Counted from the first letter of the stretch, positions 43,969 through 64,000 are shown. The stretch is 64,000 nucleotides of DNA from Mycobacteriales bacterium (GCA_040414495.1 JBEDUI010000054.1:15253-79252), one strand, 5' to 3'. Program-made: numbers and translations. The notes: generated by a model from the sequence alone, not told the origin.

Positions 43969-44157
43969 CTAATGAGTCGCGCCCATCTCGTGCAGCAGGC
44001 TGATGAGCTCCGCTCGGGTCGGTGCCATGGCAACGACGCCAACGGTATCCTCGGCCACCCAGACTGTCCGCTCGTCAATGGTCCGCGATTCGATTTTTAT
44101 ATGGCTGTGTACGACCCATTGCGGTAGGTCATGGTGGTGCTCAGGTTGATAAGTCAT
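43969..44157 (-). CDS. small hypothetical protein (possibly DUF1902/HicB-fold-like)
   Basis: Trimmed to MTYQPEHHHDLPQWVVHSHIKIESRTIDERTVWVAEDTVGVVAMAPTRAELISLLHEM (62 aa). RBS AAAGGTG. Confidence 0.4.
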   Translation of the reverse strand: MTYQPEHHHDLPQWVVHSHIKIESRTIDERTVWVAEDTVGVVAMAPTRAELISLLHEMGATH

Positions 44158-44183
44158 CTGATTTACACCTTTTGTTGCCCGGG

Positions 44184-44197
44184 CCGTACAAGGACCG
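44184..44197. promoter_or_regulatory. DevR/DosR-like box (minus-strand reading CGGTCCTTGTACGG)
   Basis: GGWCCTT core. GTACAAGGACC is identical to 62426-62436. A second, Mtb-consensus-like box GGGCCAATAGTCAC lies at 44362-44375. Confidence 0.3.
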
Positions 44198-44423
44198 ATC
44201 GCCGACGCCGCAGACGTGGAATACGGCTGGCGTCGAGGAGAGTCCGTCCGCACGAGCGGCTTGGAGATGGGTGGTGTGCGGAACACCCGCAGCTTCCGCC
44301 CCTTATCTTTCCGGCTCTCCTCGACAATTCAAGTAGATGCCGGTCCGCGACCATCGTGGTAGGGCCAATAGTCACTAGCGCAGTCATACGACACCAACGC
44401 ACGCCCGGTCGCGATCGCAGCTC

Positions 44424-44648
44424 CTATCTGGACCGAATGCGCGTTCGTACCGCACCATCTTCATGCGTCGAACGAACGCGAGCATCGGAGCCGGGAAAAA
44501 CCAGCGTCGTATCCCCGGTGTCAGACCACCGAACGACATAGGGCGGCTGCCCGCCTTTACCGTGGACTTCCAGGATTTCTCCATCGCGAATCGATCGCTG
44601 CAACCGGCTGGACATGATCAGCAGCTGATCACCAACTGTGGCGTACAT
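44424..44648 (-). CDS. DUF1918-domain protein (Rv0569-like)
   Basis: 74 aa. MYATVGDQLLI...RDGEILEVHGKGGQPPYVVRWSDTGDTTLVFPGSDA. Confidence 0.7.
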   Translation of the reverse strand: MYATVGDQLLIMSSRLQRSIRDGEILEVHGKGGQPPYVVRWSDTGDTTLVFPGSDARVRSTHEDGAVRTRIRSR

Positions 44649-44669
44649 TCTCAGCCCCTCCCTCGATCA

Positions 44670-46394
44670 TCAGATCTTCTCCGTTTGGTCGTGCCTACCG
44701 GCCTGCACCGTCCACCGCTGGTACGCCTCTACCGCAGTCGGCAAGGTCACGAAGATTCGATCGGCACCGATCTTGTCCGCCAGACCCGCAGCGGCCAGAT
44801 TGTCCCGTAATTCCTGCTTCACCCGCGCCATGGCAAACACAATGCCCCGGGTGTTCAGCTGACAGCGCAGTTTCTCCAACGCATCAACCGCAGTGATGTC
44901 GACCTCCACGTTCGCTTCCGCGTTGAGCAGGAACCAGCGCGGTGGGCACTTATCCACGGTCAGCGAAGCCAGCGCCCGGCGGCGGAAGTCTTCGGCGTTG
45001 GCGAAGCACAGTGGCGCGTCGTATCGATACACGATCAGCCCGGGGATAAGCGTTGCGTCGGCATAGTCGTCGATGTCATGCATGCCGGCCAAACCCGGAA
45101 CCTGCCCCAGAATCCCGTCGTGAGGCCGGGCCAGGCGTCGGAACAAGTCCAGAATGGACAGTCCAACCGCGACCAAGACGCCCTGCAGGACGCCGAGCCC
45201 GAGAACGGCTGCGGTCGTGGCCAATGCCAGCGCCAGCTCGCTACGGCGAAATGCGGCGAACCGCCGAAGCTCCGGTATGTCGATCAGCGTCAAAGCCGCG
45301 TAGACCACCAACGCGCCGAGCGCGGCGAGCGGAAACGCGGCGAGCAATGGGCGTGCGGCAAGCACTGTCACCAATACCGCCGCCAAACAAACCAGCGAGT
45401 ACAACTGCGTCCGGCTGCCAGTCGCCACACCGATCGCGGTCCGGCTCCCACTGCTGCTGATAGGGAAACCGTGTAGTGCACCGGCGGACCAGTTCGCAGC
45501 ACCCAATGCCAACAGTTCCTGGTTGGCGTCGATCGTTTCGCCTCTGCGATCGGCGAATGCGCGTGCGGTCAGAATGTCGTCGGAAAACCCGACAATAGCG
45601 ATGCCAATTGCCGGAAGGATGAGATGGCTGACGTCATGCAGGCTGAGGCCGTGCACAGATGGCCTCAGCACCCCCGCGGAAAAGTCACCGACAACCGCGA
45701 TTCCGTGGTTTTGTAACGAGAAGACGTAGACCACGAACGTGGCCAGCAACATTCCGATCAGCGGCCCCGGCACGTGCGGTTTCAACCGGGCCGCCAGCAG
45801 GAGAAAGGCGAGTACGCCGGCGGACAGCAATACGGTTGGCCAGTGCACCTGGTCCAGCTGGCTCAGGAAGGAACGGGCTTCGGGGACGAAGCTATCTCCG
45901 CGAACCGGCACCCCGGTAAGCTTTTTGAGCTGGCTGGTGATCATGATGACCGCCACGCCAGCCAGGTATCCGGTCAGTACCGGCTTGGACAACAGGTCGG
46001 AGAGAAATCCCAGCCGTGCCAGCCATCCGAGCACGCAGACTCCCCCAACCAGCAGCGCCAGCACGACAGCAAGCGACTCGTAACGCGCCGAGTCACCGGC
46101 CGCGAGCGGACCGAGCGCGACCGCGGTGAGCAGCGCCGTGGTCGACTCCGGACCGATCGAGACCTGCCGGGATGAACCAAGTAACGCGTAGATCGCGAGC
46201 GGACCGATTGCCGCCCACAAACCGGTGGCAGGCGGTAGTCCGGCAACGCCGGCATATGCCATCACCTGCGGGATGAGATACGTCGCGACGGTAACGCCGG
46301 CGATGACATCACCACGTAGCCACTCGCGCTTGTAGTGCCGGAGAACCCCTATTCCCGGTGCTCGCGGGACAACACCGTGCAGTACGGATGACAT
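44670..46394 (-). CDS. SulP-family anion transporter with C-terminal STAS domain
   Basis: 574 aa. Multi-TM core plus STAS (LNAEANVEVDITAVDALEKL). Confidence 0.85.
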   Translation of the reverse strand: MSSVLHGVVPRAPGIGVLRHYKREWLRGDVIAGVTVATYLIPQVMAYAGVAGLPPATGLWAAIGPLAIYALLGSSRQVSIGPESTTALLTAVALGPLAAGDSARYESLAVVLALLVGGVCVLGWLARLGFLSDLLSKPVLTGYLAGVAVIMITSQLKKLTGVPVRGDSFVPEARSFLSQLDQVHWPTVLLSAGVLAFLLLAARLKPHVPGPLIGMLLATFVVYVFSLQNHGIAVVGDFSAGVLRPSVHGLSLHDVSHLILPAIGIAIVGFSDDILTARAFADRRGETIDANQELLALGAANWSAGALHGFPISSSGSRTAIGVATGSRTQLYSLVCLAAVLVTVLAARPLLAAFPLAALGALVVYAALTLIDIPELRRFAAFRRSELALALATTAAVLGLGVLQGVLVAVGLSILDLFRRLARPHDGILGQVPGLAGMHDIDDYADATLIPGLIVYRYDAPLCFANAEDFRRRALASLTVDKCPPRWFLLNAEANVEVDITAVDALEKLRCQLNTRGIVFAMARVKQELRDNLAAAGLADKIGADRIFVTLPTAVEAYQRWTVQAGRHDQTEKI

Positions 46395-46412
46395 GCCATA
46401 CTCCCGGGCCGC

Positions 46413-47330
46413 CTATCCAACACCTCGGGCGTGCTCGCTCATTGGTTGATCGGGCCCTTTCACCACGGTGACCGGGCAATAGGCCTGGTGCAGAACACTT
46501 TGGCTGACTGAGCCGAGGAACAGTCCGATTCGCCCGCCCCGCCCGCGCGAGCCAACAACCAGCATCGGTGCGCCGAGCGATTGATGGATCAAGGCCGTGT
46601 CGGCCTCACCTTTCGGCAGTTTCTTGACGACTGGCACCGCGGGATATTTCTCGGTAAATCCGGACACATATTGCTCGAGCCACTGTTCCTGCTCGGCCGG
46701 CGGTCCCAGCTTGATCGATTCAGCGTATCCAGGCCTGCGATATACCGCCTCCCAGCAATGCACGATCACGACCGGGAGATCGCGCAATGACGCCTCGTCA
46801 AACGCGTATCCCAGCGCCTGTTCGGATGCGGCCGAGCCGTCGACACCGACCACAACGCCGGTTCCGGGAATGGGCTCGCACCGGTATGGTCGCGCCACCA
46901 TCAGCGGGCACCGGCAATGCGCGATCAGACCGGAGCCCACTGCCCCGAGCAGAGCGGAGACCGTCGCTCCGTGCCCCCGCGTACCAATGATCATCAGGCT
47001 GGCGTCATAGGACTGATCAACCAGGACGCTGCGGGGGTGACCGTTTATCGTGATTCCACTCACCCGATTGGGACCGATTTGCTCGCCGGCCAAGGCGATC
47101 GCGTTTCCGACGAGTTCCTCGCAGTTGTATTGCGGCACCGATTCGGTCGGTAGTGGATACGCTGCCGTCGCCGGAACGACGTGTGCCCGATGGTCGCAGG
47201 CGTGGACAATTCCCAGCGAACGTTGCCGCAGCGTCGCCTGCTCGATGCCGTGACGCAAGGCCAGTTGGCTCATCGGAGTTTCGTCGATGCCGACGACGAT
47301 CGGGTGCACCGCGTAGTCGATCATTCCCAT
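46413..47330 (-). CDS. universal stress protein (tandem Usp domains)
   Basis: 305 aa. Two Usp repeats (IVVGIDETPMS..., VVVGVDGSAASE..., VVGSRGRGG). Confidence 0.85.
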   Translation of the reverse strand: MGMIDYAVHPIVVGIDETPMSQLALRHGIEQATLRQRSLGIVHACDHRAHVVPATAAYPLPTESVPQYNCEELVGNAIALAGEQIGPNRVSGITINGHPRSVLVDQSYDASLMIIGTRGHGATVSALLGAVGSGLIAHCRCPLMVARPYRCEPIPGTGVVVGVDGSAASEQALGYAFDEASLRDLPVVIVHCWEAVYRRPGYAESIKLGPPAEQEQWLEQYVSGFTEKYPAVPVVKKLPKGEADTALIHQSLGAPMLVVGSRGRGGRIGLFLGSVSQSVLHQAYCPVTVVKGPDQPMSEHARGVG

Positions 47331-48535
47331 CAGCTCCTCAAGGTCCGCCGCGATGCCGCCATCGCCGGGTTGCCCGCATCGTTTTCGGCGGTACGGGCCG
47401 AGAGCCCGAGACGAATCCGCACCGATGCCTCGTTGATATCCGCCAGCGAAACGATGCCGACCAAGGTGTCGCCGGCGAATACCAACGCGTGCCGGGACGC
47501 TGAACGCGTCGTCATGCGGGCCAGCAGGTCGCCCAGCGGCTCCTCCGGATTCGCGGTGGCGACGCTTGTTCGAGGCAGCGCGACGGCATCGGCGCGCGTT
47601 GTCGCTCGCTGCCCAGGGGTGAGAGCGAGAATTCGGTCACGTTGCAAAAGCCCCACGATGTCGCCGTCACAATCCTGGACCGGGTAGGCGGTCGCGTCGT
47701 GCGTGCTGACAAACCGGGCGATGATCGCATCGACGGTCAACCAACCCGGAACCACGACCGGGTCCGGGTTCATGACGTCCCTGACCCGTAATCCGCTGAA
47801 TGTCTCGGTGATCTGCGCCTGTTGTTGTTCGGCGCGGGCCGCTCCGATGACAAAGACGCCGATCAGGGCTAGCCAAAGACCGCCCAACAAGGCACCCGCC
47901 AGCGCGTCGAAAACGCCAAATGCCACGAGAATCCAGCCCATGATCACGCCGGCCCGGTTGGCCGATTGGATGCCGCGTTGGCGATCCGCGGTTCGTGCCC
48001 ATACCGCGGCGCGTAGCACTCGACCGCCATCGAGCGGAGCGGCGGGCAACAGATTGAAAACGGCGAGGAAGATGTTGATCCAACCGAGCCAGAGCAGCGC
48101 CGCGGTCAGCAATTCGGGGCCGGCCAGCGATCGCGAGATGAGCCCACCGATGGTGATCAGCCCACCGATGAGCAGGCTGGTTACCGGTCCGGCGATCGCG
48201 ATTCGAAAATCCGCTCCGGGCGTGTTCGGCTCATCAGACAGTTTCGTCACGCCACCCAGCAGCCACAACGTGACACCCTCGACCCGTTCGCCTTCGTGCC
48301 GGGCAACGACAGCGTGCGCCAACTCATGGGCGAGCAGCGAGGCCAGGAACAGCGTTCCCACCCCGATGCCGACAAGCCAATATACGGCCCGATTCTGCCC
48401 GGCGACCCGGCTGGGAAGGTAGGAATCGGCCAGCAGATAGGCGACCAGCGCGGCCATAATCGCCGCCGTCCAGTTCACGCCGATCCGGACGCCGGCCATT
48501 CGCCCCAGCCGGAATGTCTCGTTCACCGAACCCAC
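47330..48535 (-). CDS. site-2 protease (M50) with CBS pair (Rv2625c-like)
   Basis: 401 aa. HELAHAVVARHEG. C-terminal CBS domains. TGATG junction with the usp gene. Confidence 0.85.
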   Translation of the reverse strand: MGSVNETFRLGRMAGVRIGVNWTAAIMAALVAYLLADSYLPSRVAGQNRAVYWLVGIGVGTLFLASLLAHELAHAVVARHEGERVEGVTLWLLGGVTKLSDEPNTPGADFRIAIAGPVTSLLIGGLITIGGLISRSLAGPELLTAALLWLGWINIFLAVFNLLPAAPLDGGRVLRAAVWARTADRQRGIQSANRAGVIMGWILVAFGVFDALAGALLGGLWLALIGVFVIGAARAEQQQAQITETFSGLRVRDVMNPDPVVVPGWLTVDAIIARFVSTHDATAYPVQDCDGDIVGLLQRDRILALTPGQRATTRADAVALPRTSVATANPEEPLGDLLARMTTRSASRHALVFAGDTLVGIVSLADINEASVRIRLGLSARTAENDAGNPAMAASRRTLRS

Positions 48536-48558
48536 CTCGTCTTACCTATCGGAACCGA

Positions 48559-49614
48559 CTACGGTGCTCGCGAATACCCGAGATACGGCCTGACCGGGGC
48601 CTGGCTGCACAGCACTTCATGGACCGCACGACGCGGTGTCAACGCCGGTTCCGGTCCCGGCCCGGGCCATCCGATCCGCAACAGAATCTGCGGCGTTCCC
48701 ACACCGCCCAAAACTCGGCGCATCAACGACTGCGGTCCGGGAACCTCCAGCGGCTGCGTATACGGCGAAGCGCTCAGCCCCAATTCCGTTGCCTCAACCA
48801 GGACTCGGCCCAGCGCTTCCCCGGCCACCAGCCGGTCCAAGCGACTGTCGCTACCCGTGCCGATCACCAGCATCAAAGGCCGCTCGATCTGCACGGGCGA
48901 GGGAACCGTCATCGTTCCAGGCAAATCGCGCAACGGCACATCACAGCGCCGATCTGGCAGATCGGGCACAGCCGAAACCGGGATGCCGTCGGGCGAATCA
49001 TCAGCTCGACCCGACCATCGCTTCAACTCCCGCGCATAGGACGGGTCGGCCGCCTCGATCTCGTTGGCCCGACCCGCGGCCACGGCCAGGATCAACCGGT
49101 CTTCCCGACGGCGCACCTGGTGTGCGAAAACGCGCTGCTCATGGGCGACTGCCTGCAGACGCGCCACTATTTCCGGTTCGACCGGACGGTCGGCGAATGG
49201 CCGGCGGTCCGTACGCCGCCGCCGCGCCGCCGCCGCCAGATGCAGCGATTCCTCCGAGACGGCAGCCCGTCCGCTGACCAGAATCGTCGCCAAATGATCG
49301 TCATTCAGTGGATTCGGCTGCCGGGTGACCGTCGTACGCCATCCGGCCGCCGCCAGCGCCAGCTGGGCCAGATACAGCGCGGCCCCGCAGCTGATCAACA
49401 ACGCCCGACTACCCGGATCGGCGACCCGCAGTTGCCGCGATCGGTCGGCATACAGATCGATGGCGCCCAGCCGCAGATCGCCAATGCCGGAATGCTCGTC
49501 GATCCGCCACCACCAGGGCTGCGTGTTGTGAATGGAGGGAGCACGAATTGCCAGTTCCACGGCGCTGGTCAGCACCCCGAGTCCCGGCTGTGCATCCGAC
49601 ATCGCGGTAGTCAT
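48559..49614 (-). CDS. Acg-family nitroreductase-like FMN-binding protein
   Basis: AIRAPSIHNTQPWWWRI. Start set at MTTAMSD (AGGAGG upstream). The track start 49629 is an alternative. Confidence 0.8.
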   Translation of the reverse strand: MTTAMSDAQPGLGVLTSAVELAIRAPSIHNTQPWWWRIDEHSGIGDLRLGAIDLYADRSRQLRVADPGSRALLISCGAALYLAQLALAAAGWRTTVTRQPNPLNDDHLATILVSGRAAVSEESLHLAAAARRRRTDRRPFADRPVEPEIVARLQAVAHEQRVFAHQVRRREDRLILAVAAGRANEIEAADPSYARELKRWSGRADDSPDGIPVSAVPDLPDRRCDVPLRDLPGTMTVPSPVQIERPLMLVIGTGSDSRLDRLVAGEALGRVLVEATELGLSASPYTQPLEVPGPQSLMRRVLGGVGTPQILLRIGWPGPGPEPALTPRRAVHEVLCSQAPVRPYLGYSRAP

Positions 49615-49699
49615 GACGCCTCCTGGCAATGGGCACAGTCTTCACTGCATTCCATCGCAAGTGGACAGCAACAGCCATGGCCCAAAGTCACCCGTATAC

Positions 49700-49738
49700 G
49701 GGACATTCGTCGGTTCGGAAGTTCAGGACCAATGGCCG
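49700..49738. promoter_or_regulatory. two loose DevR/DosR-like boxes (GGGACATTCGTCGG; AGGACCAATGGCCG) in the acg/usp divergent promoter
   Basis: Read directly. Both deviate from the strict GGWCCTT core. Confidence 0.25.
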
Positions 49739-49785
49739 TACCGGGTTCCGATCAGCAGATGAGACTGGAGGGAGGAGGAACTGCG

Positions 49786-50574
49786 ATGTCACAACCAGCC
49801 ACTAGCCCTAGCAGGATCAGCGTCGGTGTCGACGGCGGCACCGGCGGCTGGGAGGCACTTGCCTGGGCCATCGAGGAAGCAGCTCTTCGGCAGGCCGAAT
49901 TGCACGTGATCCACTGTGGTACGTCGAGGGCAGTTTGTGACACCGCACGGGACCAAGCCGAACAGCGTGCCCCAGAGTTGCCAATAATTACCGAATTAAG
50001 CGACAAGCCGGCTCCTGAGGCCCTTTTGGACGCAGCGCGGCACAGTTCCATGGTCGTCGTGGGGCCGCCGTCGACGTCCCATCGCCTCAGTCAGCTGCTG
50101 TCGCGCTCAACCGCATTACACGTCGCGGTACGCACACCGCGCACGACCGTGATCGCCCACCGCCGCGCAAGCAAACTCCATGCTCCGATCACCATGGGGT
50201 GGATCGAACCGTCGGAGCGGGCATCGGCCGCGCTGGAGGCCGCCTTTCGGGAGGCGGTATTGCGAGCCCGCCCGTTACTGGTGATGACGGTGAAAACCTC
50301 GGAACCCCACGCCATGCTGGATGAGGTCGAGAACCAGTACCTCACGATGGAAATCGAACCGTGGCGATCAAAATATCCGGACGTCGAGGTTCAGGTGGCG
50401 GTGCAGCACGGCCGGCCGTACCGGGTTCTCGCGGAGAATTCGGCTCAGGCCGAGCTCCTCGTGGTCGGCGAACGCAGTCGGTCGGATTACCTGGGCCTGC
50501 ACAGCGAATCGGCCCTGCCAAAGCTTGTTCATGACATCGATTGTCCGTTGATGGTCGTGCACAACAGAGTCTGA
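49786..50574 (+). CDS. universal stress protein (tandem Usp domains)
   Basis: Trimmed to MSQPATSPSRISVGVDGGTGG. Very strong RBS GGAGGGAGGAGG. Confidence 0.8.
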   Translation: MSQPATSPSRISVGVDGGTGGWEALAWAIEEAALRQAELHVIHCGTSRAVCDTARDQAEQRAPELPIITELSDKPAPEALLDAARHSSMVVVGPPSTSHRLSQLLSRSTALHVAVRTPRTTVIAHRRASKLHAPITMGWIEPSERASAALEAAFREAVLRARPLLVMTVKTSEPHAMLDEVENQYLTMEIEPWRSKYPDVEVQVAVQHGRPYRVLAENSAQAELLVVGERSRSDYLGLHSESALPKLVHDIDCPLMVVHNRV

Positions 50575-50586
50575 TGGGAGTGCACC

Positions 50587-51480
50587 ATGGCACATCGTCC
50601 GCCCTTGGGGCAGCTCGGGCTCAACACCGGCAAGAAAGCGCGCTTGCACCGAATCCTGTTCCAGAACGGGTTACACAACGGCACCGGCCTGTTTCTCCCG
50701 TACGATCAGGGACTCGAGCACGGGCCGCGGGACTTCTTCGCCAATCCGGCCGCCAGCGACCCGAAATACATCGTTCAGTTGGCGATCGAGGGCACGTTCA
50801 ACGGAATCGTGCTGCAGGTTGGTCTCGCGGAGAAGTTCTATTGGGACTACGCCGGAGAAGTACCCCTTATCTTGAAGCTGAACGGCAAGACCGACATACC
50901 CGCGGCCGATCGGGCCCGTTCCCCGCTGAATGCCAGCGTCGCCGACGCTATCCGCCTCGGCGCGGACGCGGTCGGCTACACGATGTACGTCGGCAGCCCG
51001 GCTCAGGAAACAGACTTCGAGGAATACCGGTGTATCCGCCATGACGCGCACGAATATGGCATGCCGCTCATAGTCTGGGCGTATCCCCGGGGTTCGGCGA
51101 TCGAGGCCAAGGGCGGAAAGGACTCGTTCTACGCCGTTGATTACGCCGCGCGTACCGCGAGCGAGTTGGGCGCCGATGTGGTCAAGGTCAACTTCCCGCA
51201 CCCGGAGAAGCGCACCGCGGTCCCCGCCAATTACGACAGCGAGTTCGCCTCGCAGGAGGCGATCAACGCGGTCGTCCGATCGGCGAATCGCACGCTGCTG
51301 CTCGTCTCAGGCGGCGAGCGGGCCGGTGATGACGCGATGCTCGAAAAGGCCCGCGAATCAATGGAGGCCGGCGCCACCGGGTTGATTTTCGGTCGGAACG
51401 TGTGGCAGCGCGGGCACGATGAGTCGTTGCGGTTCGTCGATGAGCTTCGCGAGATTCTCGGGAAATACCCGACCACGTGA
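50587..51480 (+). CDS. class I aldolase (DhnA/FbaB-type fructose-bisphosphate aldolase family)
   Basis: 297 aa. LFLPYDQGLEHGP, ADVVKVNFP (Schiff-base Lys region), GLIFGRNVWQ. Confidence 0.8.
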   Translation: MAHRPPLGQLGLNTGKKARLHRILFQNGLHNGTGLFLPYDQGLEHGPRDFFANPAASDPKYIVQLAIEGTFNGIVLQVGLAEKFYWDYAGEVPLILKLNGKTDIPAADRARSPLNASVADAIRLGADAVGYTMYVGSPAQETDFEEYRCIRHDAHEYGMPLIVWAYPRGSAIEAKGGKDSFYAVDYAARTASELGADVVKVNFPHPEKRTAVPANYDSEFASQEAINAVVRSANRTLLLVSGGERAGDDAMLEKARESMEAGATGLIFGRNVWQRGHDESLRFVDELREILGKYPTT

Positions 51481-52053: not shown

Positions 52054-52057
52054 CCCG
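52044..52057. promoter_or_regulatory. DevR/DosR-like box GGGACCTTAGCCCG
   Basis: 11/14 match to the recalled Mtb core GGGACTTTAGTCCC. Spans the flavodoxin stop, 60-73 nt upstream of ATG 52117. Confidence 0.35.
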
Positions 52058-52116
52058 TAGCACCGGAGGGCTCATGCGTCACACACTGCAAGAAAGGCAC
52101 CACGAGGAGCGTAACG

Positions 52117-55798: not shown

Positions 55799-56674
55799 TT
55801 ACCGGGCGACCGCTACCGGGCAATGCGCCAGTGCCAGCACATGCTGGCTGACCGATCCGAGTAGCAGGCCGGCGAACCCGCCCCGCCCGCGGGATCCCAC
55901 CACGATAAGGGAAGCCGAACGCGCCTTGTCGACCAGCACCCGCCCGGATGCGCCACGGACGATCTCTCGACACACCGGCACCTCGGGATATTTCTCAGCC
56001 CAGGGATCAACGATGGCGTTCATGGTCTCGACTACGGCTAATTGTGCCGCCGAATCGGGTCGGGTCATGACCTGCATGCCATGTCCCGGAAGCATTGGCG
56101 GAACGGTGAATGCGTGTATTACCTGCAGGGGCAGGTCCAGCCGCCTCGCGGTTTCGAACGCGAAAGCCAATACCTTGTCCGCGTGTTCGGAGTTATCGAC
56201 GCCGGCAATGATGGGTCCATCGACGGGAAATCCATCGGTCCGGGTCACCACGACCGGGCCGGACGCGTGTGCCGCCACCTGGGTGCTGGTCGCCCCGACC
56301 ATCAGCCGCTGCATCCGCCCCGACCCGTGGGCGCCCACCACAAGCAGATCGTGCGGCCCGGCAAAGCGGATCAACTGCTCGGCCGGCTGGCCCGAAACGA
56401 GCTCCGGTACCACGCGCAGCCGTGGATACCTTGACCACACGCGGTCGCGCGAATGCCATAAAACCTGCTCGCCACGGGCTCGCAGCTCGGCGGACAGGAT
56501 CGGCTCGGTGGGCAACCAGAATGCGCGATCGGACGGCATGACGAGGCAGAGAAAGAGAATGCGATCCAGCTCGGCGGCACTGCGGGCCGCCCAATCCACG
56601 GCCGACAGGCTGGCCTCGGAACCATCAACTCCTACCAATACCGCGGCATCCGACGGCGTGTGCTGCTCGGACAT
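55799..56674 (-). CDS. universal stress protein (tandem Usp domains)
   Basis: 291 aa. RBS AAGGAGG. VLVGVDGSEAS and IIAGVDNSEHA repeats. Confidence 0.85.
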   Translation of the reverse strand: MSEQHTPSDAAVLVGVDGSEASLSAVDWAARSAAELDRILFLCLVMPSDRAFWLPTEPILSAELRARGEQVLWHSRDRVWSRYPRLRVVPELVSGQPAEQLIRFAGPHDLLVVGAHGSGRMQRLMVGATSTQVAAHASGPVVVTRTDGFPVDGPIIAGVDNSEHADKVLAFAFETARRLDLPLQVIHAFTVPPMLPGHGMQVMTRPDSAAQLAVVETMNAIVDPWAEKYPEVPVCREIVRGASGRVLVDKARSASLIVVGSRGRGGFAGLLLGSVSQHVLALAHCPVAVAR

Positions 56675-56742
56675 GATCCGCCTCCTTTGTCCGCAGATCT
56701 ACTGTCATCAGATCGCAGACGGCTACCGGCCGTAAGAGACAG

Positions 56743-56771
56743 ATGTCCTTTCGCGCTGGGACTTTCGAACC
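56743..56771. promoter_or_regulatory. adjacent DevR/DosR-like boxes ATGTCCTTTCGCGC and GGGACTTTCGAACC in the usp/DUF1876 divergent promoter
   Basis: The second box plus its GAA flank (56758-56774) matches the recalled 17-nt core-plus-flank GGGACTWWAGTCCCSAA at 14/17 positions. Confidence 0.35.
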
Positions 56772-56891
56772 GAACATTCCGCCAAACGCGGCTGGATTGT
56801 TACGGGACTCAGCGAGTGACCAAGGTACCTACCGGCCCAGCCGGCTGCGCGTAATCGTTGCTGTGAAGGTGAATTGGTCGGGAGGTTGGCG

Positions 56892-57146
56892 ATGACGCAC
56901 GTACGAAAGTGGACAGTCGATGTGTTTCTGTTCGAGGACAATGACAAGACAACGGCCAATGCCGAACTGAAGACAGAAGCTGGGAACGTGGTGCGCGGCG
57001 TCGGAACAGCCCATCGCAGCGGCTCGGACCCCGTGGTGCCCGAGATCGGCGCCGAGTTCGCCGCAGGTCGGGCGCTACGTGATCTGGCGCGCAAGCTGAT
57101 GGGTTTTGGTGTCGATGATCTGCAGAGCGTCATCAAACGGCCGTGA
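56892..57146 (+). CDS. DUF1876-domain protein (Rv1738-like)
   Basis: Start set at ATG 56892 (GGGAGG 6 nt upstream). MTHVRKWTVDVFLFEDNDKTTANAELKT...PEIGAEFAAGRALRDLA. Confidence 0.7.
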   Translation: MTHVRKWTVDVFLFEDNDKTTANAELKTEAGNVVRGVGTAHRSGSDPVVPEIGAEFAAGRALRDLARKLMGFGVDDLQSVIKRP

Positions 57147-57158
57147 ACCGGCTCAGCG

Positions 57159-58496
57159 TCAGTCGCGTCCCGCCTGAGCCGGGACAAAGTGGACGGTGAA
57201 CCAGTCCACCGCCAACCAGGACACAGCTTCCAGCGCACCCGGCTCCTCAAACAGATGCGTCGCCTCCGGCACGATCTCGAGCCGGTTTTCGCACCGCAGA
57301 TGGCTCTTCGCTATCCGGTTGAGGTGCAGCACCACCTCGTCGGCACCTCCGACAATAAGCAACGTGGGAGCGCGCACCAGCGCCAGCCGGGGTATCGCAA
57401 GATCGGGCCGACCACCACGGGAAACGACCGCCGCGACCGGGCTGTCCGGTGCGCCGGCCGCCCAGAGCGCCGCCGCCGCGCCGGTACTTGCGCCGAAATA
57501 GCCAATCGGCAACTGGCTGGTCTCCGGCGCGGTACGCAGCCAATTGGTGACATCGGTCAGCCGGTTGGCCAAGAGCCGTATATCGAACACATTGCCACGG
57601 TCGGTTTCCTCCTCGACCGTGAGCAGGTCGACCAGCAAGGTTCCCAATTCATTGGCGTTCAACGCCGCCGCCACATGCCTGTTTCGTGGACTATGCCGCG
57701 AACTGCCGCTGCCATGGGCAAACAGCACCAAGCCGCGCGCCCGCTCCGGCACGTGCAGATGCCCGGCCAACCGGGTCGTGCCGGACGGGATCGAGACATC
57801 GTCATCGCGGTGCTGGGGCCCGACGTCGACCACCGGCTGCTCGACCGGATGCTGTCGCTCGCGCGCCCCGGCCCGCTCCAACAATTCCGTTACGCGCTCG
57901 TCCGGCACCTGATCGAAATGCCGATAAAACTCACCTACGGCGAAAAAGCGGGCCGATTCACGCAGGCATATAACGTCATCAGCGTCGGCTCGCACTACCT
58001 CGCCCAATCCGGCTGGAGCGACCGGAGTCGCGAGCACAATGCGGTTTGCGCCTCTGGCCCGCACGGCCTGGCAGGCGGCACGGGCGGTCGCTCCGGTGGC
58101 GATTCCGTCGTCAACCACAATCGCGGTCCGGCCGTCCAACCGCACCGATGCGCGGCCAGCGCGGAAACGTCGTGCCTGACGTTCGAGCGTTATGCGCTCC
58201 CGATCGGTAATTGCGGCAATATGCTCAGCATCGATCCTGGCCTGCTGAACGACCCGATCGTTGAGCACCCGTACGCCGCCTTCGCCGATCGCGCCCAATC
58301 CCAACTCATGTTGGAAGGGCACACCCAGCTTGCGTACCACGGTGATATCCAGCGGCAAGCCGAGCTTCAGGGCAACCTCGTACGCCACCGGCACACCGCC
58401 GCGGGGCAGTCCGATCACGACCGCGTCGCCGAAATGGTGCTGTTGCAGCTCGGCGGCGAGGCGACGCCCGGCCTGTACCCGATCGCTGAATCGCAT
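57159..58496 (-). CDS. phosphoribosyltransferase fused to dienelactone-hydrolase-like alpha/beta hydrolase (Rv0571c-like)
   Basis: MRFSDRVQAGRRLA... PRT motif IVVDDGIATGAT. C-terminal DLH-like half. GTG 58508 is an alternative start. Confidence 0.8.
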   Translation of the reverse strand: MRFSDRVQAGRRLAAELQQHHFGDAVVIGLPRGGVPVAYEVALKLGLPLDITVVRKLGVPFQHELGLGAIGEGGVRVLNDRVVQQARIDAEHIAAITDRERITLERQARRFRAGRASVRLDGRTAIVVDDGIATGATARAACQAVRARGANRIVLATPVAPAGLGEVVRADADDVICLRESARFFAVGEFYRHFDQVPDERVTELLERAGARERQHPVEQPVVDVGPQHRDDDVSIPSGTTRLAGHLHVPERARGLVLFAHGSGSSRHSPRNRHVAAALNANELGTLLVDLLTVEEETDRGNVFDIRLLANRLTDVTNWLRTAPETSQLPIGYFGASTGAAAALWAAGAPDSPVAAVVSRGGRPDLAIPRLALVRAPTLLIVGGADEVVLHLNRIAKSHLRCENRLEIVPEATHLFEEPGALEAVSWLAVDWFTVHFVPAQAGRD

Positions 58497-58780
58497 GAGC
58501 GGCCTCACAACTGCTGTGTCCTCCGACCTCCCGGTGCGGTCGTCTGATCGCGTCGTTGCACCACAAAGTCCACATAGGATTTTTCGTAGCTGAAATGGCG
58601 CATTCGGGCTCCTCTCGCCGACGGGGCAAGCAGGTAGGTTCAGACAATCTCGCCCACGCTCCGATGGGCAGAGTCTTTAGCCCTCGCTTCAACGGCAAAG
58701 GGCTGGAATTGCCCTGCATCCCCAGCTATCACGTTTTCTGGCATCCAACCCACGTCGGGTACGAAATCCGCGGCAACGTT

Positions 58781-58794
58781 GGGACCTTCGCCTC
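58781..58794. promoter_or_regulatory. DevR/DosR-like box GGGACCTTCGCCTC
   Basis: GGACCTTCGCCTC is identical to 62467-62479. 106-119 nt upstream of the CBS-BON start. Confidence 0.35.
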
Positions 58795-58899
58795 CTGAAC
58801 CACGGGGCTCTTCGGCTTTTACTGGGAGTTGTCAACCCGGAAGACCGACGTTGTCGCCCTTATGCAAGGCGATTCGCTCCAACACGAAGAGGGATCGAG

Positions 58900-59577
58900 A
58901 TGAGACAGGTAACCGCTGGTGATGTCATGACTCGATCGGTGGTGACGAGTCGAGTCGACGAGCCGCTGAAAATAGCCGTAAGCAGGATGATCGACAACAG
59001 GGTCGGCCTATTGCCGGTGACCGACGACGCCCGGCATGTCCTGGGCGTGCTCTCCGAGAGCGACGTCATCCGTAAGCAGGAAAGCCCGACCGGGTCTGAG
59101 CAAGGTCGCGGGCGGTGGCTACGCCGTTTTCCCGAGCGCCAGGTTCGCGGCTCAACGACGGGCGAGATCATGACCACTCCCACCTATACGGTCGAGGAGT
59201 CCACGACCCTGCCCGAGGCCGCGCGGATCATGGATCAGTACGCCATCACCCACCTACCGGTGCTCGACAGCGAGAACCGGTTGATCGGGATCGTGGCTCG
59301 CGCCGACCTGCTGAGCGTTTATCTCAAGAGCGACCAGGAGATTCATGACGCGATTTATCGCGACATCATCGACGAGACCATGATGCTCGACCGGACATCG
59401 GTCACGGTCGCCGTGGAGAACGGAGTCGTCACATTGGCCGGTCGGTTGGAGAGTAGAAATCTCGTTCCGATACTCGTCCAATTCGTCTCGATGCTCGACG
59501 GGGTCGTCGGTGTCAAAAACCACCTGACGTATCGAGAAGACACCGTGGGTCTCCTGCAACAACCGCCCGGCGGCTAA
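58900..59577 (+). CDS. CBS-pair + BON domain protein (Hrp1/Rv2626c-like CBS module)
   Basis: 225 aa. Two CBS motifs, then BON (VTVAVENGVVTLAGRLES...VVGVKNHL). Confidence 0.8.
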   Translation: MRQVTAGDVMTRSVVTSRVDEPLKIAVSRMIDNRVGLLPVTDDARHVLGVLSESDVIRKQESPTGSEQGRGRWLRRFPERQVRGSTTGEIMTTPTYTVEESTTLPEAARIMDQYAITHLPVLDSENRLIGIVARADLLSVYLKSDQEIHDAIYRDIIDETMMLDRTSVTVAVENGVVTLAGRLESRNLVPILVQFVSMLDGVVGVKNHLTYREDTVGLLQQPPGG

Positions 59578-59585
59578 TACGCCGG

Positions 59586-60383
59586 TCAACGATCGAGGGC
59601 GGCTCTGATCAGCCCGTAATGTCCGTCGTACCGGTGGTAGAGCACGCTGGCATGTTCGTCCGCACTGTCCACAAAGAACACGAACGGTAACCCGGCCAGC
59701 TCGAGCCGATCTTTCGCCTCGGCAACGGTGAGCCGTGCCGCAGGTTGCGGGCTCACGGTGATCCGACCCGACGGGTGCCGCGTCGGCGACACCACGGCGG
59801 CAAGGCGATAACCGGTCTCCCCCGACCGGTAGATCACCGATTCCAATCCGGTGTCGACGTCGGTGAACAGATAGAAGTCATAGTCCATCAGGTCCATTTC
59901 GGTGGCGGCGTCCGTGCACGACTCGGGTGTGAGCGCCAGCGATTTACGCCGCACAATTCGGCGCTCCCCAAAAGGCCTCGGGAAATACCCGGGTCGGCGC
60001 GTCGGCTCCTGGCCGTGCCGCCACTCGTGCTCCTCGCTCTTGGGCATGCCACCGCGGCGGGCCTCCCAGTGCCGGGCGAGCCGATCCAGCCGGCGGGATA
60101 ACCGCTCCCGCAACAGGTCGATTGCCTGAGTCATCGTGGGCGCCGCGACCTGCGCGCGTACCAAACGACCATCAAGGTCCAGGTTGGCCTGGGCTATTGC
60201 CGGTCGACTCACTGCCGGGTTCGCCGACTCGGTCAGCTTGGCGCGCGCGAAAAGGATCGGCTCATGGGCGTGATTGGCCAATGCCACAATCCGGGAACGC
60301 ACGTATTCGGGCATGTTTGGGCGCACCTGGCCACGAACCACGACCGCCACATCGGGCATCGGCTGACTCGTACGTTGTCGCAT
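59586..60383 (-). CDS. long hibernation-promoting-factor-like protein (Rv0079-like, S30AE + sigma-54-modulation C-terminal domain)
   Basis: 265 aa. RBS GAGGAGG 7 nt before ATG 60383. Lies 12 nt downstream of ftsH. Confidence 0.8.
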   Translation of the reverse strand: MRQRTSQPMPDVAVVVRGQVRPNMPEYVRSRIVALANHAHEPILFARAKLTESANPAVSRPAIAQANLDLDGRLVRAQVAAPTMTQAIDLLRERLSRRLDRLARHWEARRGGMPKSEEHEWRHGQEPTRRPGYFPRPFGERRIVRRKSLALTPESCTDAATEMDLMDYDFYLFTDVDTGLESVIYRSGETGYRLAAVVSPTRHPSGRITVSPQPAARLTVAEAKDRLELAGLPFVFFVDSADEHASVLYHRYDGHYGLIRAALDR

Positions 60384-60395
60384 TGTCGAACCTCC

Positions 60396-62360
60396 TCACC
60401 CTGAGGTGACTGGCGAGAGCGGCTTGGCTGGCCCACCGTGCACGACTTCGAGCACGACCGACCCGTCGATGGTTTCGTGATAAACGAGGAGGGCCGAAAG
60501 CCGATCCAATGCGTCGCGATGCTCCCGCAACATATCGACCGCCCGCTGCTCCGCCTCTCGCAAAAGCCGCGACACTTCCTCGTCCACGATGCGTTGGGTC
60601 TGCTCGGAGTACGGCCGGCGCACCTGGTCGGCCGCGCTTTCACCGAGGAACTGCGGCTCGCCGGTTCCGTACCCGACCGGACCGACCACTGTGGACAGAC
60701 CGAATTCACGTACCATTCGTGTCGCCACCTGCGTCGCACCGGACAGGTCGTTGGCGGCCCCGGTCGACGCCTCGCCGAATACCACCAGCTCCGCCGCCCG
60801 ACCGCCCAACCGCACGGTCAGCAGATCGGTCAGATAGCCCTCGCTGTACAAATGCCGCTCCGCCTCCGGTAATTGTTCGGTCGAACCGAGCGCCATTCCG
60901 GAGGGCAGGATCGTCACCTTCGCCACCGGGTCGGCGTGCTCGCACAACGCGGCCAGCAACGCGTGCCCGGACTCGTGCACCGCGACCGCATGCCGCTCCT
61001 CGGGCAGCAACGCGTTCGAGGTTTCGCGACGGCCCAGCAGAACCCGGTCGCGGGCGGCGTCGAGATCCTCGCGGGTCAGCAGAGTACGGCCGGCGCGTAC
61101 GGCGTTGATGGCCGCCTCGTTCAGCAGGTTGGCCAGATCCGCGCCGGAAAACCCCGGGGTCGCGCGGGCGGTCACGTCCAGATCGACGTCCTCGGCGAGT
61201 TGCTTGCCCAGCGCGTGCACTTCAAGAATCGCCGCCCGCTCGGCCTGATTCGGCAGCGGCACCACGACCTGCCGGTCGAACCGGCCCGGTCGCAGCAGCG
61301 CCGGATCCAGCGTCTCCGGCCGGTTGGTGGCGGCCAGCACCACGATCCCGCTGCTCTGGTCGAAGCCGTCCAATTCGGCCAGCAACTGGTTGAGCGTCTG
61401 CTCGCGTTCCTCGTGCCCGCCCTGCGCCATTCCGCGGCGACCGCCGATCGCATCCAATTCGTCGATAAAGATGATCGCCGGCGCGCGCTTGCGGGCTTCC
61501 TCGAACAGGTCGCGAACCCGGGAAGCGCCTACACCGACGAACATTTCCACGAACGCCGATCCGGTCACCGAGAGAAATGGCACTTCTGCTTCACCGGCTA
61601 CCGCGCGGGCGAGCAGCGTCTTGCCGGTTCCCGGCGGCCCGACCATGATCACCCCGCGCGGTCCCTTGGCACCAGCGACGACGTACCGGCCCGGATGGCG
61701 CAGGAAATCCACGACCTCGCTGATTTCCTGTTTCACACCGTCATATCCGGCCACATTGGCAAAACGCGTATCGGGCCGGACAGACTCGATGATTTTCGCC
61801 TTGGATCGGCCGAATCCGCTCATTCCGCCGGCCAGCGACCGTTGAGCGCGCCCGCCAATCCAGATAAAGAAACCCACCAGGATCAGGAATGGCAGAAACG
61901 CCAGCAGGGCCGACAGCCAGGCGCTGCCGCTGCTGCGGGTCGCGGTGATCGGCACCTGTTTGGTCCGCAACGCCTGCTGCAGCTGGGAAGTACCCAGCGC
62001 GGTGGGCAGTTGGCTGGTGAAACGCTCGCCGGTCTTCAGCTCACCGGTCACCGCGCCTTTGTCGTTGATCGACACCTCGGAAACGTTGCCCGCCTGAACC
62101 TTTGTGACCAGCGCGGTGTACGAGAGCGACGTCGTCTTATGCGTATTGCTCGACAGACTCGACACGACCAGCACCGCGACCGTTCCGGCGAGGAGAACCG
62201 CCCACAGAACCCATCGCCAGACCGGTGTTTTCGGCGGTGTTGCCGGTGGCGGCGGATCGCGTGGCGGGCCGGGCTTCGGGCTCACCGACAGGTGCCGGTT
62301 GGGCCACTGCGCGGCATTCAACATCCGGACCACAGCGCGTTCTCGCTTCTCATTCGGCAT
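60396..62360 (-). CDS. ftsH: ATP-dependent zinc metalloprotease FtsH
   Basis: 654 aa. Two N-terminal TMs, [26 protein letters not shown]. Confidence 0.85.
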
Positions 62361-62400
62361 TCCGTGTACTCAGTGTCAACGACCACTCGACCGGACGTCA

Positions 62401-62479
62401 GGGTCCTTGTGCCCTCGTTGCTGGGTACAAGGACCAACTGAGAGTCCTTCCGGCGCCCGGCGGCGAGGACCTTCGCCTC
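62401..62479. promoter_or_regulatory. array of four DevR/DosR-like boxes (GGGTCCTTGTGCCC, GGGTACAAGGACCA, GAGTCCTTCCGGCG, AGGACCTTCGCCTC)
   Basis: Box starts at 62401, 62423, 62442 and 62466. Located in the ftsH / 4Fe-4S-gene divergent promoter. Confidence 0.4.
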
Positions 62480-62542
62480 TGGCCGTAGCCGAGGTGGTCG
62501 GCGTTGAGTGCTGGCAAGGGCAGCCCGACCGAGAGGGTGCTG

Positions 62543-63655
62543 ATGGATTCGCCAACCGCGCTGCTCGACCGGGCCGGCCTGGACCGGTTGATCGAGGTCC
62601 TGCGGGCCGACGGATATACCGTGATCGGCCCGACCGTACGCGACAACGCCATCGTGCTGGCTGAGCTTGACTCGGGCGCGGGCCTCCCGGCTGGCTGGGG
62701 CGTACGAACCGGACCGGGACAATACCGGCTGTACCGACGCGACGACGCGGCCGTGTTCGCGCATTCAGCCGGCCCGCAGTCCTGGAAGAACGTGCTGCAC
62801 CCGGCGCGGCGGCGACTGTGGTCTTCGGACTCTCCCGATGAATACGAGCCGGCGCCGAAATACGCCCTATTGGGGGTACGCGGCTGCGATCTGGCCGCCA
62901 TCGGGACGCTCGCCGGAGTGCTCGGTGCGGGCGCACATCCCGACGGCGCATTTCGCCGTACCCATTCCCAGCTGTTTGTGGTGGCGGCCAATTGCACCGA
63001 GCCGGGCGAGGTGTGTTTCTGCACCTCGATGGGCACCGGCCCGGCCGCTGGTCCGGGCTACGACCTGGGCCTGACCGAGCGGATCGACGAAGCCGGTCAC
63101 CGGTTCGTGGTCGATATCGCCAGCGACGCGGGTGCCCGAATAATGGCCCGGATATCGCACAATGACGCGTCGTCTGAGGACATCGCGCAGGCGCGGGCGC
63201 AGGTCGCGGCCGCCGCCGGGCGGATGGGCCGGTCCATGCCCGAGGTCGATCTGCGCGCGCTGTTGCGTGACAACCGGGAATCCCCGCACTGGCAGGACGT
63301 TGCCGACCGCTGCCTGACCTGCGGCAACTGCACAATGGTCTGCCCGACCTGTTTTTGCACCACCACCGAGGATGTCACCGATCTGACCGGCGACCACGCC
63401 GAACGATGGCAACGCTGGGCGTCGTGCTTCGAGCTGGATTTCTCTTACGTACACGGCGGAAATGTGCGTCAGTCCGGCGCCAGCCGCTACCGGCAGTGGA
63501 TGACCCACAAACTCAGCACCTGGTACGACCAATTCGGCAGCTCCGGTTGCGTGGGCTGCGGCCGCTGCATTGCCTGGTGTCCGGTCGGCATCGACATTAC
63601 GGCCGAGGCCGCTGCCCTCGCCGCCGGGTCAGGCGCGGACGATGCGCACCGATGA
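62543..63655 (+). CDS. 4Fe-4S dicluster protein, AsrA/HydB-like (beta subunit of a group-3b-type hydrogenase/sulfhydrogenase module)
   Basis: Start set at ATG 62543 (GAGAGGG upstream; track TTG 62504 possible). [16 protein letters not shown] and [15 protein letters not shown]. Confidence 0.75.
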
Positions 63656-64000
63656 TCCGCTGGCCGGCATCGCGACGTTTTCTCATTTGTCGCCGGCCGA
63701 ACGCGCCGTGATTTCTGGTACCACCCGGGTCGTGCAATTTCCCGCCGGAGAACGCCTTTTCGACGAAGGAGAGTCGGCGGACGGTTGCTGGCTCATCCAG
63801 GAGGGCCGAATCGCCTTGGATATAGCCGTTCCCGGCCGCGGTGACGTCGTCGTCCAGACGCTGGGCCCGGGCGATCTGCTGGGCTGGTCCTGGCTGGTGG
63901 CGCCATTTCGTTGGCATTTCGGTGCGCGAGCTGTACAGCCGACGACGGCCGTCGCATTCGACACCGCACGGCTCCGGGAACTGGCTGAAGCGGATCCGGC
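63642..64000 (+). CDS. cyclic-nucleotide-binding-domain protein; 3' end runs off the window
   Basis: Own translation: [60 protein letters not shown]...[11 protein letters not shown]. Overlaps the upstream gene by 14 nt. Confidence 0.65.

Follow-up and report, generated by a model that had tools for sequence, protein, structure and literature searches.

The stretch analysed here comprises 64,000 nucleotides from Mycobacteriales bacterium (GCA_040414495.1, JBEDUI010000054.1:15253-79252); it is called the window below, and positions are counted from its first letter. Its right-hand part, from about 39.3 kb to beyond 64 kb, is probably a chromosomal DevR/DosR (OsdR)-type hypoxia/redox-stress regulon gene cluster of an undescribed actinomycete. 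An earlier account made from the DNA alone (the sequence-only reading) had proposed a dormancy island rich in DosR-regulon homologues at 43969-64000. Genes in the window, which has 65% G+C and many shadow open reading frames (ORFs), were picked by codon-position G+C and then checked with Pfam, with NCBIfam at its curated cutoffs and by sequence matches to PDB entries. The following genes were located in the region.

39469..42198 (+), CtpF (Rv1997)-like type II P-type cation ATPase (Pfam, NCBIfam), outside the span of the sequence-only reading and provided with Dev-type boxes
42302..42880 (-), TetR-family regulator (Pfam, NCBIfam), no match to the position weight matrix (PWM) introduced below
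about 42977-43924 (+), quinone-oxidoreductase (QOR)-type zinc alcohol dehydrogenase, divergent from the TetR gene, no PWM match
43969..44157 (-), 62-aa small protein encoded by a small ORF (sORF), candidate regulon member
44424..44648 (-), DUF1918 protein of the Rv0569/Rv2302 family (Pfam E 4e-25; PDB 2A7Y, Rv2302, E 5e-13)
44670..46394 (-), SulP anion transporter with STAS domain, Rv1739c-like (Pfam; above the TIGR00815 cutoff; STAS against 2KLN E 5e-51)
46413..47330 (-), tandem universal stress protein (USP) 1, Rv2623-like (Pfam; PDB 2JAX/3CIS E 5e-40, full length)
47330..48535 (-), M50 site-2-type metalloprotease with CBS domains, M50-CBS (Pfam; HELAH and NLLPAAPLDG motifs intact)
48559..49629 (-), Acg-family FMN-binding nitroreductase 1, Acg1 (NF047509 298 bits, cutoff 199; PDB 2YMV E 5e-37)
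about 49786..50574 (+), tandem USP2, divergent from Acg1 (Pfam, two Usp stretches, E 2e-17)
50587..51480 (+), DhnA/DeoC-type (DeoC/LacD) class I aldolase (Pfam; NCBIfam class I FBA 215 bits, below the cutoff of 277)
51514..52053 (+), flavodoxin_5 (HemG-like) flavodoxin (Pfam, NCBIfam)
52117..54765 (+), GNAT (PatA-like) domain fused to an alpha+beta module like ADP-forming acyl-CoA synthetase (ACD), GNAT-ACD (Pfam GNAT, CoA_binding, Succ_CoA_lig and ATP-grasp_5; NCBIfam; PDB)
54769..55767 (+), Acg-family nitroreductase 2, Acg2 (NF047509 256 bits, cutoff 199)
55799..56674 (-), tandem USP3 (Pfam E 5e-47)
56874..57146 (+), Rv2632c/Rv1738-like (DUF1876) protein (Pfam; PDB 4WPY, Rv1738, E 4e-10, also 2FGG; alternative start 56892)
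57159..58496 (-), fusion of a phosphoribosyltransferase (PRT) and an alpha/beta (dienelactone-type) hydrolase (Pfam, ORF 57159-58508; 445 aa as called in public data)
58900..59577 (+), CBS-CBS-BON protein (Pfam)
59586..60383 (-), RafH-type dual-domain ribosome hibernation factor, Rv0079/MSMEG_3935 family, S30AE long HPF (Pfam; PDB 8WHX)
60396..62360 (-), FtsH paralogue (Pfam; TIGR01241 697 bits, cutoff 600)
62543..63655 (+), HyhB-like Fe-S (Fer4_22) beta subunit of group 3b [NiFe]-hydrogenase (Pfam; NCBIfam sulfhydrogenase beta/AsrA below cutoffs)
63642..64000 (+), stand-alone cyclic-nucleotide (cNMP)-binding protein of 154 aa that runs past the window end and is completed on Logan contig L164

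All genes named in the sequence-only reading were found where it had put them, by Pfam and for most also with NCBIfam or PDB support, including the interleaved ftsH, class I aldolase, flavodoxin, GNAT/ACD fusion and hydrogenase-type module. Its count of three tandem-Usp proteins and two Acg-type nitroreductases holds: USP1, USP2 and USP3 are each two-domain by Pfam, and both nitroreductases exceed the cutoff of the 'Acg family FMN-binding oxidoreductase' model. The M50-CBS protease does lie directly upstream of a Usp, its stop codon overlapping the USP1 start, and a Usp-M50CBS-Usp arrangement also occurs in Mycobacterium locus L027. The likenesses claimed to Rv1738, Rv1739c and Rv0079 are borne out by the PDB matches, the last by RafH (8WHX chain w, E 2e-81, residues 12-262 against 3-256, full length). 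Three labels stood in part. The DUF1918 family is confirmed, but the protein matches Rv2302, and Rv0569-like and Rv2302-like are therefore inseparable. The supposed Hrp1-like protein has the CBS-CBS-BON architecture, but its resemblance to Rv2626c (E 4e-9, not the best match) is a generic CBS likeness. Both halves of the PRT-hydrolase fusion are recognised by Pfam, but the dienelactone hydrolase match is weak. By domain architecture this fusion is a putative counterpart of Rv0571c, and M50-CBS one of Rv2625c; the window genes would then also match the arrangement of Rv2625c beside the USP Rv2624c. Rv1739c is a neighbour of the M. tuberculosis regulon and is not known as a listed member. Rv0571c, Rv2625c, Rv0569, Rv1997 and Rv0079 are documented DevR regulon members (PMC3177182; PMC7801807).

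The evidence that carries the regulon assignment comes from promoter boxes defined only from other genomes, in a test that could have turned out against a DosR-like reading. The upstream regions of hyhB homologues in 80 foreign loci were chosen as the box source to avoid circularity. In the actinomycete loci, GGGNCNNNNGNCCC-like boxes lie 50-120 bp upstream of the hyhB starts; they were found in none of the non-actinomycete loci. A 20-mer PWM built from 21 of these foreign hyhB sites (consensus GCAGGGACCTTCGGCCCTCG) was used to scan the whole window on both strands, and gave the following sites.

39309..39328 (-), Dev-type box of score 12.7, located 42 bp before the start of the ABC ATPase gene and 150 bp before that of the P-type ATPase gene
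39396..39415 (+), GGCGGGCCATTGGCCTCTAT, Dev-type box of score 13.4, located 64 bp before the start of the P-type ATPase gene
44359..44378 (no strand assigned), Dev-type box GTAGGGCCAATAGTCACTAG, score 16.4, the best in the window, 212 nt upstream of the sORF ATG
49675, 49697 and 49722 (49675..49741, no strand assigned), three weaker tandem Dev-type boxes in the Acg1/USP2 divergent promoter, scores 9.5, 8.3 and 9.6
52041..52060 (+), ACTGGGACCTTAGCCCGTAG, Dev-type box of score 14.4 that spans the flavodoxin stop codon and lies 66 bp before the start of GNAT-ACD
56733, 56755 and 56813 (56733..56832, no strand assigned), three Dev-type boxes in the USP3/DUF1876 divergent promoter, scores 11.7, 12.0 and 13.3
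58778..58797 (+), Dev-type box GTTGGGACCTTCGCCTCCTG, score 14.4, with a weak partner at +24, 112 bp upstream of the CBS-BON gene
62398..62417 (+), TCAGGGTCCTTGTGCCCTCG, Dev-type box of score 13.2, located 48 bp before the start of ftsH
62463..62482 (+), GCGAGGACCTTCGCCTCTGG, Dev-type box of score 14.9, located 70 bp before hyhB

Of the 13 best PWM matches in the 64-kb window, 11 are intergenic and located between 39.3 and 64 kb. At a score of at least 11.5, nine distinct sites lie in the 1,958 bp of cluster intergenic DNA versus none in 6,097 bp of other intergenic DNA; elsewhere, one straddles the flavodoxin stop and the 33 kb of other coding DNA contain two. Under a first-order Markov model, 0.15 sites are expected in the cluster intergenic DNA, and 500 simulations gave two at most. 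DevR/OsdR-type boxes are about 60-fold enriched in the cluster intergenic regions. By our own arithmetic from the site counts, the chance that all nine sites fall within the cluster share of intergenic DNA is about 3e-6. Box centres are located 42-112 bp upstream of start codons, in seven intergenic regions that serve most of the transcription units. In M. tuberculosis DevR promoters, a conserved primary box is accompanied by adjacent secondary boxes of low conservation, at 23-93 bp from the start codon, and tandem boxes at 22-bp spacing are a hallmark of DevR (PMC3177182). Such tandem partners are present at 56733/56755 and 49675/49697/49722 (22 and 25 bp), and weakly at 39309 and 58778. The hyhB box at 62463 resembles the hyhB boxes of relatives in position and sequence (for example CATGGGACATTCGCCTCACG at -83 in locus L006), and the same PWM also marks Acg, Usp and devR-operon promoters in Mycobacterium loci whose DevR ortholog is 80-90% identical to M. 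tuberculosis DevR. The enrichment of boxes derived from foreign genomes supports the proposal of a DosR-regulon-like dormancy/hypoxia cluster with extra proteostasis, metabolic and hydrogenase genes and a regulator encoded elsewhere.

Other patterns were noted in the same promoter regions. GGGACCTTCGCC-like words are common, by eye, to the divergent promoter regions. The hand-derived patterns RGGACYWWYGNC, GGACCTTCGCCTC and ACAAGGACC were suggestive yet post hoc and were not used as evidence, and a reading of the motif as an ECF/SigF-type -35/-10 promoter was dropped, its spacing to candidate -10 elements being inconsistent. At 62389-62435 a perfect 9-bp inverted repeat (GGTCCTTGT...ACAAGGACC, arms 17 nt apart) overlaps the ftsH-proximal box and could belong to a secondary box or serve as an additional regulatory element. 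A second copy of ACAAGGACC is located at 44188.

Judged by comparative sequence data, the gene clustering is not a product of chance, because the same families recur around hyhB or rafH in 160 other loci and the intergenic regions share a box. Around the 80 hyhB homologues, in shuffled order, occur Acg nitroreductases (28 loci), USPs (17-20), CBS-BON (12), DUF1918 (11), DUF1876 (8), M50-CBS (3), the FtsH paralogue (3) and GNAT-ACD (2), and around 80 rafH homologues DUF1918, USPs, DUF1876, PRT-hydrolase, M50-CBS, Acg and GNAT-ACD recur. Five Mycobacterium loci, as well as Prescottella, encode a DevR ortholog no more than 10 kb from hyhB, and in Prescottella locus L021 an ATPase of the CtpF-like type adjoins devR.

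The twenty-kilobase cluster of the sequence-only reading is real but larger, continuing on both sides of 43969-64000. The gene behind boxes 39309 and 39396 is the counterpart of ctpF/Rv1997, which belongs to the DevR regulon, and the cluster therefore appears to start about 4.7 kb further left, at the boxed CtpF-like ATPase (39.3 kb); rightward it would continue beyond the window into a group 3b [NiFe]-hydrogenase operon. The predicted transcription units are a probable Acg1-M50-USP1-SulP-DUF1918 operon with Acg1 first and gaps of at most 23 nt, USP2-aldolase-flavodoxin, GNAT-ACD-Acg2 with its own box, ftsH-rafH, hyhB-cNMP-hyhG and onward, and, as putative single-gene units, the ATPase, the sORF, USP3, DUF1876 and CBS-BON; the PRT-hydrolase gene may be served by a box at a distance of 280 bp. 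At 35640-39276 (-), in divergent orientation to the CtpF-like ATPase, lies a MacB-like ABC system consisting of a 1001-aa FtsX-domain permease and an ABC ATPase. It may be co-regulated or repressed via box 39309, because this box sits 42 bp upstream of the ABC ATPase gene. An ORF at 42209-42643(+) was dropped as a gene, being a shadow of the opposite-strand TetR gene, and the first ~86 codons of the ORF at 42719-43924(+) are over-extended or shadow.

At the right end, the relatives' operons continue after hyhB with an NAD-binding gamma subunit, the NiFe small and large subunits and a HycI protease. Logan contig L164, which extends 890 bp past the window end, completes the cNMP-binding protein and then encodes a HyhG-like gamma subunit. 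On these two grounds, what had been called a hydrogenase-type module is best read as the start of a group 3b [NiFe]-hydrogenase operon; HyhB and, beyond the window, the gamma subunit were seen here, and the small and large subunits in the operons of relatives only. The closest HyhB is 73% identical among 185,579 species representatives, the best RafH relative is about 60% identical (JGI metagenomes), and the PRT-hydrolase fusion belongs to a very large family of actinomycete proteins, in which over 8000 relatives have a length near 445 aa and some contain PF01738; the best of them are about 63% identical. The identities are low, with public relatives of the encoded proteins reaching 60-75% at most, and the host would thus be an actinomycete without a close sequenced relative in the collections compared. 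Identical copies of the HPF, sORF and HyhB proteins are found only on Logan contigs of 1.5-3.3 kb from run SRR34018551 and, for the sORF protein, on a 92.8-kb NCBI contig; identical copies of GNAT-ACD and FtsH are not on record, and an exact 39-mer of the window end does not occur in the JGI metagenomes. The PRT-hydrolase gene adjoins rafH in eight metagenome loci.

RafH (Rv0079/MSMEG_3935 family) is known as a ribosome hibernation factor (PMC3390679; PMC10799931), and it depends on DosR, a putative box being located 82 bp before its start codon (PMC3390679). The protein encoded here has S30AE and two stretches of C-domain by Pfam. Its gene begins 12 nt downstream of ftsH in the same orientation, and the two are probably co-transcribed. 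The FtsH paralogue is intact, with two transmembrane segments, Walker A/B, SRH and HESGH motifs. No ftsH gene was found upstream of rafH in the 38 other rafH loci with at least 2 kb of upstream sequence. However, three Streptomyces loci encode a 73-75% identical FtsH within 5-8 kb of hyhB and have Dev/OsdR-type boxes upstream. The FtsH paralogue therefore appears to be a recurrent regulon member outside mycobacteria, and its operon fusion with rafH seems specific to the present genome so far. Over about 1 kb, the DNA of the paralogue also shares 75% identity with ftsH genes of large linear plasmids from Streptomyces, and shorter segments match plasmid ftsH genes of Klebsiella, Paracoccus and Shinella, so mobile replicons do carry FtsH paralogues.

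Public data include the 62-aa sORF product as a called protein, and three relatives share 79-84% identity with it. One of these, a paralogue (the two have 62-64 aa), is encoded by the third and last gene (4040-4234) of a Usp-GAPDH-sORF operon on another contig (L163) of the same sequencing run, and this operon has a box of score 15.9 located 60 nt upstream of the Usp start. An AlphaFold (AF2) model of the small protein (pLDDT 77, moderate confidence) has a three-stranded sheet and a C-terminal helix, and gave no significant fold match in PDB.

Several results weigh against assigning these boxes to a DevR-type regulator. The training sites of the PWM had themselves been picked with a GGGNCNNNNGNCCC filter. 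While the left half of the boxes is well conserved, the right half is degenerate. The strict M. tuberculosis core GGGACNNNNGTCCC, with at most one mismatch, has no match in the window versus 4.4 expected; the 20-mer M. tuberculosis consensus with up to seven mismatches gave no enrichment either. A PWM from 25 published S. coelicolor OsdR sites (PMC5069765) likewise shows no enrichment and has its top matches outside the cluster. With the strict core and the OsdR matrix failing, recognition by a DevR ortholog is therefore proposed from the similarity of the boxes and from the relatives. The PRT-hydrolase gene has its nearest strong box 280 bp off, and the PWM scan found no box at the TetR/QOR pair inside the cluster, for which reason this pair is probably an unrelated insertion that interrupts it. 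Moreover, tblastn with DevR gave E > 3 throughout the window, in which no NarL-type response regulator was found, and no histidine kinase occurs among the window ORFs scanned by Pfam (ORFs 15159-18109 were left out). The DevR query was validated by its 80-90% identical matches in Mycobacterium loci. The absence of a DevR/DevS-type regulator or kinase from the window, asserted by the sequence-only reading, is thereby upheld. Its description of a self-contained kit is not: regulator and kinase are missing from the window, the cluster continues past the window end with the hydrogenase operon, and the description had passed over the boxed CtpF-like ATPase that belongs to it. The remaining window genes encode, by Pfam, transporters, oxidoreductases, two GAF-ANTAR proteins, TetR and MerR regulators and an ECF-type sigma factor. 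With a score of 12.8, the Streptomyces OsdR matrix has its top match at 32503-32518, in an almost perfect GC-rich palindrome (CGGCCCGTTCGGCCCG) that is intergenic and adjoins the gene for the ECF-type sigma factor (DUF6596 and TPR, 32760-34469, -); the hyhB-derived matrix skips it.

An alternative hypothesis is that synteny has merely kept a neighbourhood of stress genes together, and that the box motif is non-functional or is read by another regulator, such as a different member of the NarL/LuxR family or a protein of Crp/Fnr type connected with the cNMP-binding gene, so that no DevR-type regulon exists. The failure of the canonical DevR consensus and of the Streptomyces matrix to find the sites, the degenerate right half-site, the lack of a DevR gene in the window and the encoding of a cNMP-binding protein in the hydrogenase operon would all fit this view. 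However, that protein has 154 aa and no DNA-binding domain, the boxes agree in position and sequence with hyhB boxes of genomes that encode a DevR ortholog within 10 kb, the 22-bp tandem spacing is typical of DevR (PMC3177182), and the box enrichment is specific to the present cluster. We consider this explanation improbable. Still less probable, indeed hardly tenable, is the proposal of a mobile genomic island of 20-25 kb, acquired recently and bringing a ready-made hibernation kit, as the word island in the sequence-only reading might suggest. It could draw on a slightly lower third-codon-position G+C (GC3) of the cluster genes (0.74 versus 0.79 for other window genes, p = 1e-4), on gene content that is mosaic between relatives, on FtsH at 73-75% identity to Streptomyces paralogues and HyhB at 59-73% to its best relatives, and on the FtsH paralogues of Streptomyces plasmids. 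Overall G+C, however, is equal (0.647 in the cluster, 0.651 in the rest), the codon-usage distance of the cluster is marginal (p ~0.05), and the regulator is not carried along. No integrase, transposase, border tRNA or long flanking direct repeat was found in the window (the right border lies beyond it), and no plasmid record contains the block, matches being limited to short conserved ftsH and hyhB segments. Neither composition nor these searches thus gave a sign of recent acquisition, and we retain the DevR/OsdR-type regulon cluster as a chromosomal one.

A question within the cluster is whether GNAT-ACD forms ATP at substrate level, as the sequence-only reading had it. The best PDB matches of the protein are true ADP-forming CoA ligases (E 6e-96), and the alpha-domain phospho-histidine (residue ~456) is kept as in true ACDs (SHTAAS, against SHTGSLAG), where enteric Pat has Asn. 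The ATP-grasp segment, by contrast, retains the beta His and has lost the GG loop: its HRTEEHAL is nearer to HKSEVQGV of Pat than to HKSDAGGV (HK(S/T)D-GGV) of ACDs. The GNAT domain matches the GNAT structure of S. lividans PatA (SlPatA; 4NXY, E 4e-22), enteric Pat can be aligned along the whole protein (9IT0, E 2e-76), and all ACD equivalog models in NCBIfam give about 370 bits, far below their cutoffs of 1200-1300. It is about an even bet that the protein yields no ATP and acts as an SlPatA-type protein lysine acetyltransferase in which the ACD-like module only senses acetyl-CoA; the cluster would then hold a regulatory acetylation module and not a fermentation module. ATP formation is thus possible, but its support is no stronger than that for a role as regulatory acetyltransferase.

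The regulator, the inducing signal and the physiological roles are what we infer for this DevR/OsdR-type regulon. A DevR-type NarL-family regulator encoded outside the window would be phosphorylated by a haem/GAF sensor kinase as oxygen falls or nitric oxide or carbon monoxide rises. It would bind 18-20 bp imperfect palindromes with a consensus of about GGGAC-C-TT-C-G-NCC, often a strong box with a weaker partner 22 bp away, and thereby activate about nine transcription units. RafH would then park 70S ribosomes, while the FtsH paralogue of the rafH operon and the M50/CBS protease could remodel membrane proteins. Excess reductant might be disposed of by the group 3b NiFe-hydrogenase together with the flavodoxin, ions might be adjusted by the CtpF-like ATPase and the SulP transporter, and carbon and acetyl-CoA metabolism by the class I aldolase and the GNAT-ACD fusion. 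The tandem USPs, Acg nitroreductases, DUF1918, DUF1876 and CBS-BON proteins would represent the conserved core of the regulon.

The closest parallel is provided by M. smegmatis, in which the hydrogenase Hyd3 (msmeg_3931-3927) is induced up to 67-fold at 0.6% oxygen and lies beside a DosR-like cluster, msmeg_3932-3955, that is hypoxia-induced as well (PMC2799521). Both systems have a beta-first hydrogenase operon, here a probable one of group 3b, beside RafH (a full-length match), tandem USPs and Acg nitroreductases, with Dev-type boxes about 50-110 bp upstream of starts. The M. smegmatis cluster contains devR/devS, whereas the present window does not; here only, rafH follows an ftsH paralogue in one operon, and the M50/CBS-SulP operon, class I aldolase, flavodoxin and GNAT-ACD are extra. 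No hspX was seen here, and protein identities are about 50-70%. M. avium MAV_2494-2508 is another known corresponding cluster (PMC11876180).

The DevR/DosR regulon of M. tuberculosis, about 48 genes in several loci (Park 2003; Chauhan 2011, PMC3177182), shares with the present cluster the Rv2623-type USPs, Acg (Rv2032/Rv3131), Rv0079, Rv1738, Rv0569-type DUF1918 and ctpF, as well as the promoter layout of a primary box with weak tandem secondary boxes (PMC3177182). Its genes are scattered over more than eight loci, whereas here they form mostly one 25-kb block, and it lacks the hydrogenase 3b, FtsH paralogue, GNAT-ACD and class I aldolase of the present cluster. The boxes depart from the M. 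tuberculosis consensus TTSGGGACTWWAGTCCCSAA mainly in the right half. The OsdR/OsdK region of S. coelicolor (SCO0167-SCO0219; Urem 2016, PMC5069765) is likewise a large chromosomal cluster dominated by USPs and nitroreductases under a DevR-like palindrome, and it too includes Zn-dehydrogenases, CBS and Crp-like proteins. Some published OsdR sites, such as AGGGACCTTCGGCCCC (PMC5069765), are nearly identical to window sites (GGGACCTTCGCCTC). Yet the S. coelicolor matrix, GC-rich and with symmetric GGCCC halves, fails to score the window sites. The S. coelicolor region has osdRK inside it, and its nitrate reductase Nar2 and PPDK are both absent here. The lxa locus of Burkholderia cenocepacia reportedly contains USPs. 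This proteobacterial locus, reportedly a large low-oxygen-activated cluster (PMC3721108), serves as an analogy only.

A hypoxia-survival regulon of this kind is known; new is the present example, which has a few accessory genes of interest, and the concept of the regulon is unchanged. The DevR/DosR programme, best known from M. tuberculosis latency, would here persist as one compact block, marked by boxes, in a distant actinomycete that looks uncultured. The block lists accessory functions that would travel with the regulon core outside pathogens, namely the FtsH paralogue, M50 protease, hydrogenase 3b, GNAT-ACD, class I aldolase, flavodoxin, CtpF-like pump and new small protein, and these genes are testable candidates for the upkeep of ribosomes, membranes and redox balance in non-growing actinomycetes. 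It is a speculative and rather doubtful extension that the DevR/OsdR regulon has here and in some Streptomyces recruited modules outside the mycobacterial canon, with a boxed FtsH (here together with RafH), a boxed GNAT-ACD and the 62-aa protein forming an extended environmental dormancy regulon. Were this true, the regulon would have mechanistically new members: the ftsH-rafH operon would couple membrane proteolysis to ribosome parking, and GNAT-ACD could make ATP from acetyl-CoA and acetylate, and so switch off, AMP-forming acetyl-CoA synthetase or USPs.

Two further features of the window lie to the left of the cluster. The two GAF-ANTAR proteins, of the RNA-binding antiterminator type, are tandem and adjacent (30477-31935, +) and have no obvious link to the dormancy cluster. 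An 81-aa ORF (23177-23422) that matched no Pfam family, and inside which ARAGORN places a tRNA-Arg(CCT) at 23305-23384, probably a false positive, is preceded at 23090-23158 (+) by a Guanidine-III riboswitch (Rfam RF01763; 48.8 bits, gathering score 36).

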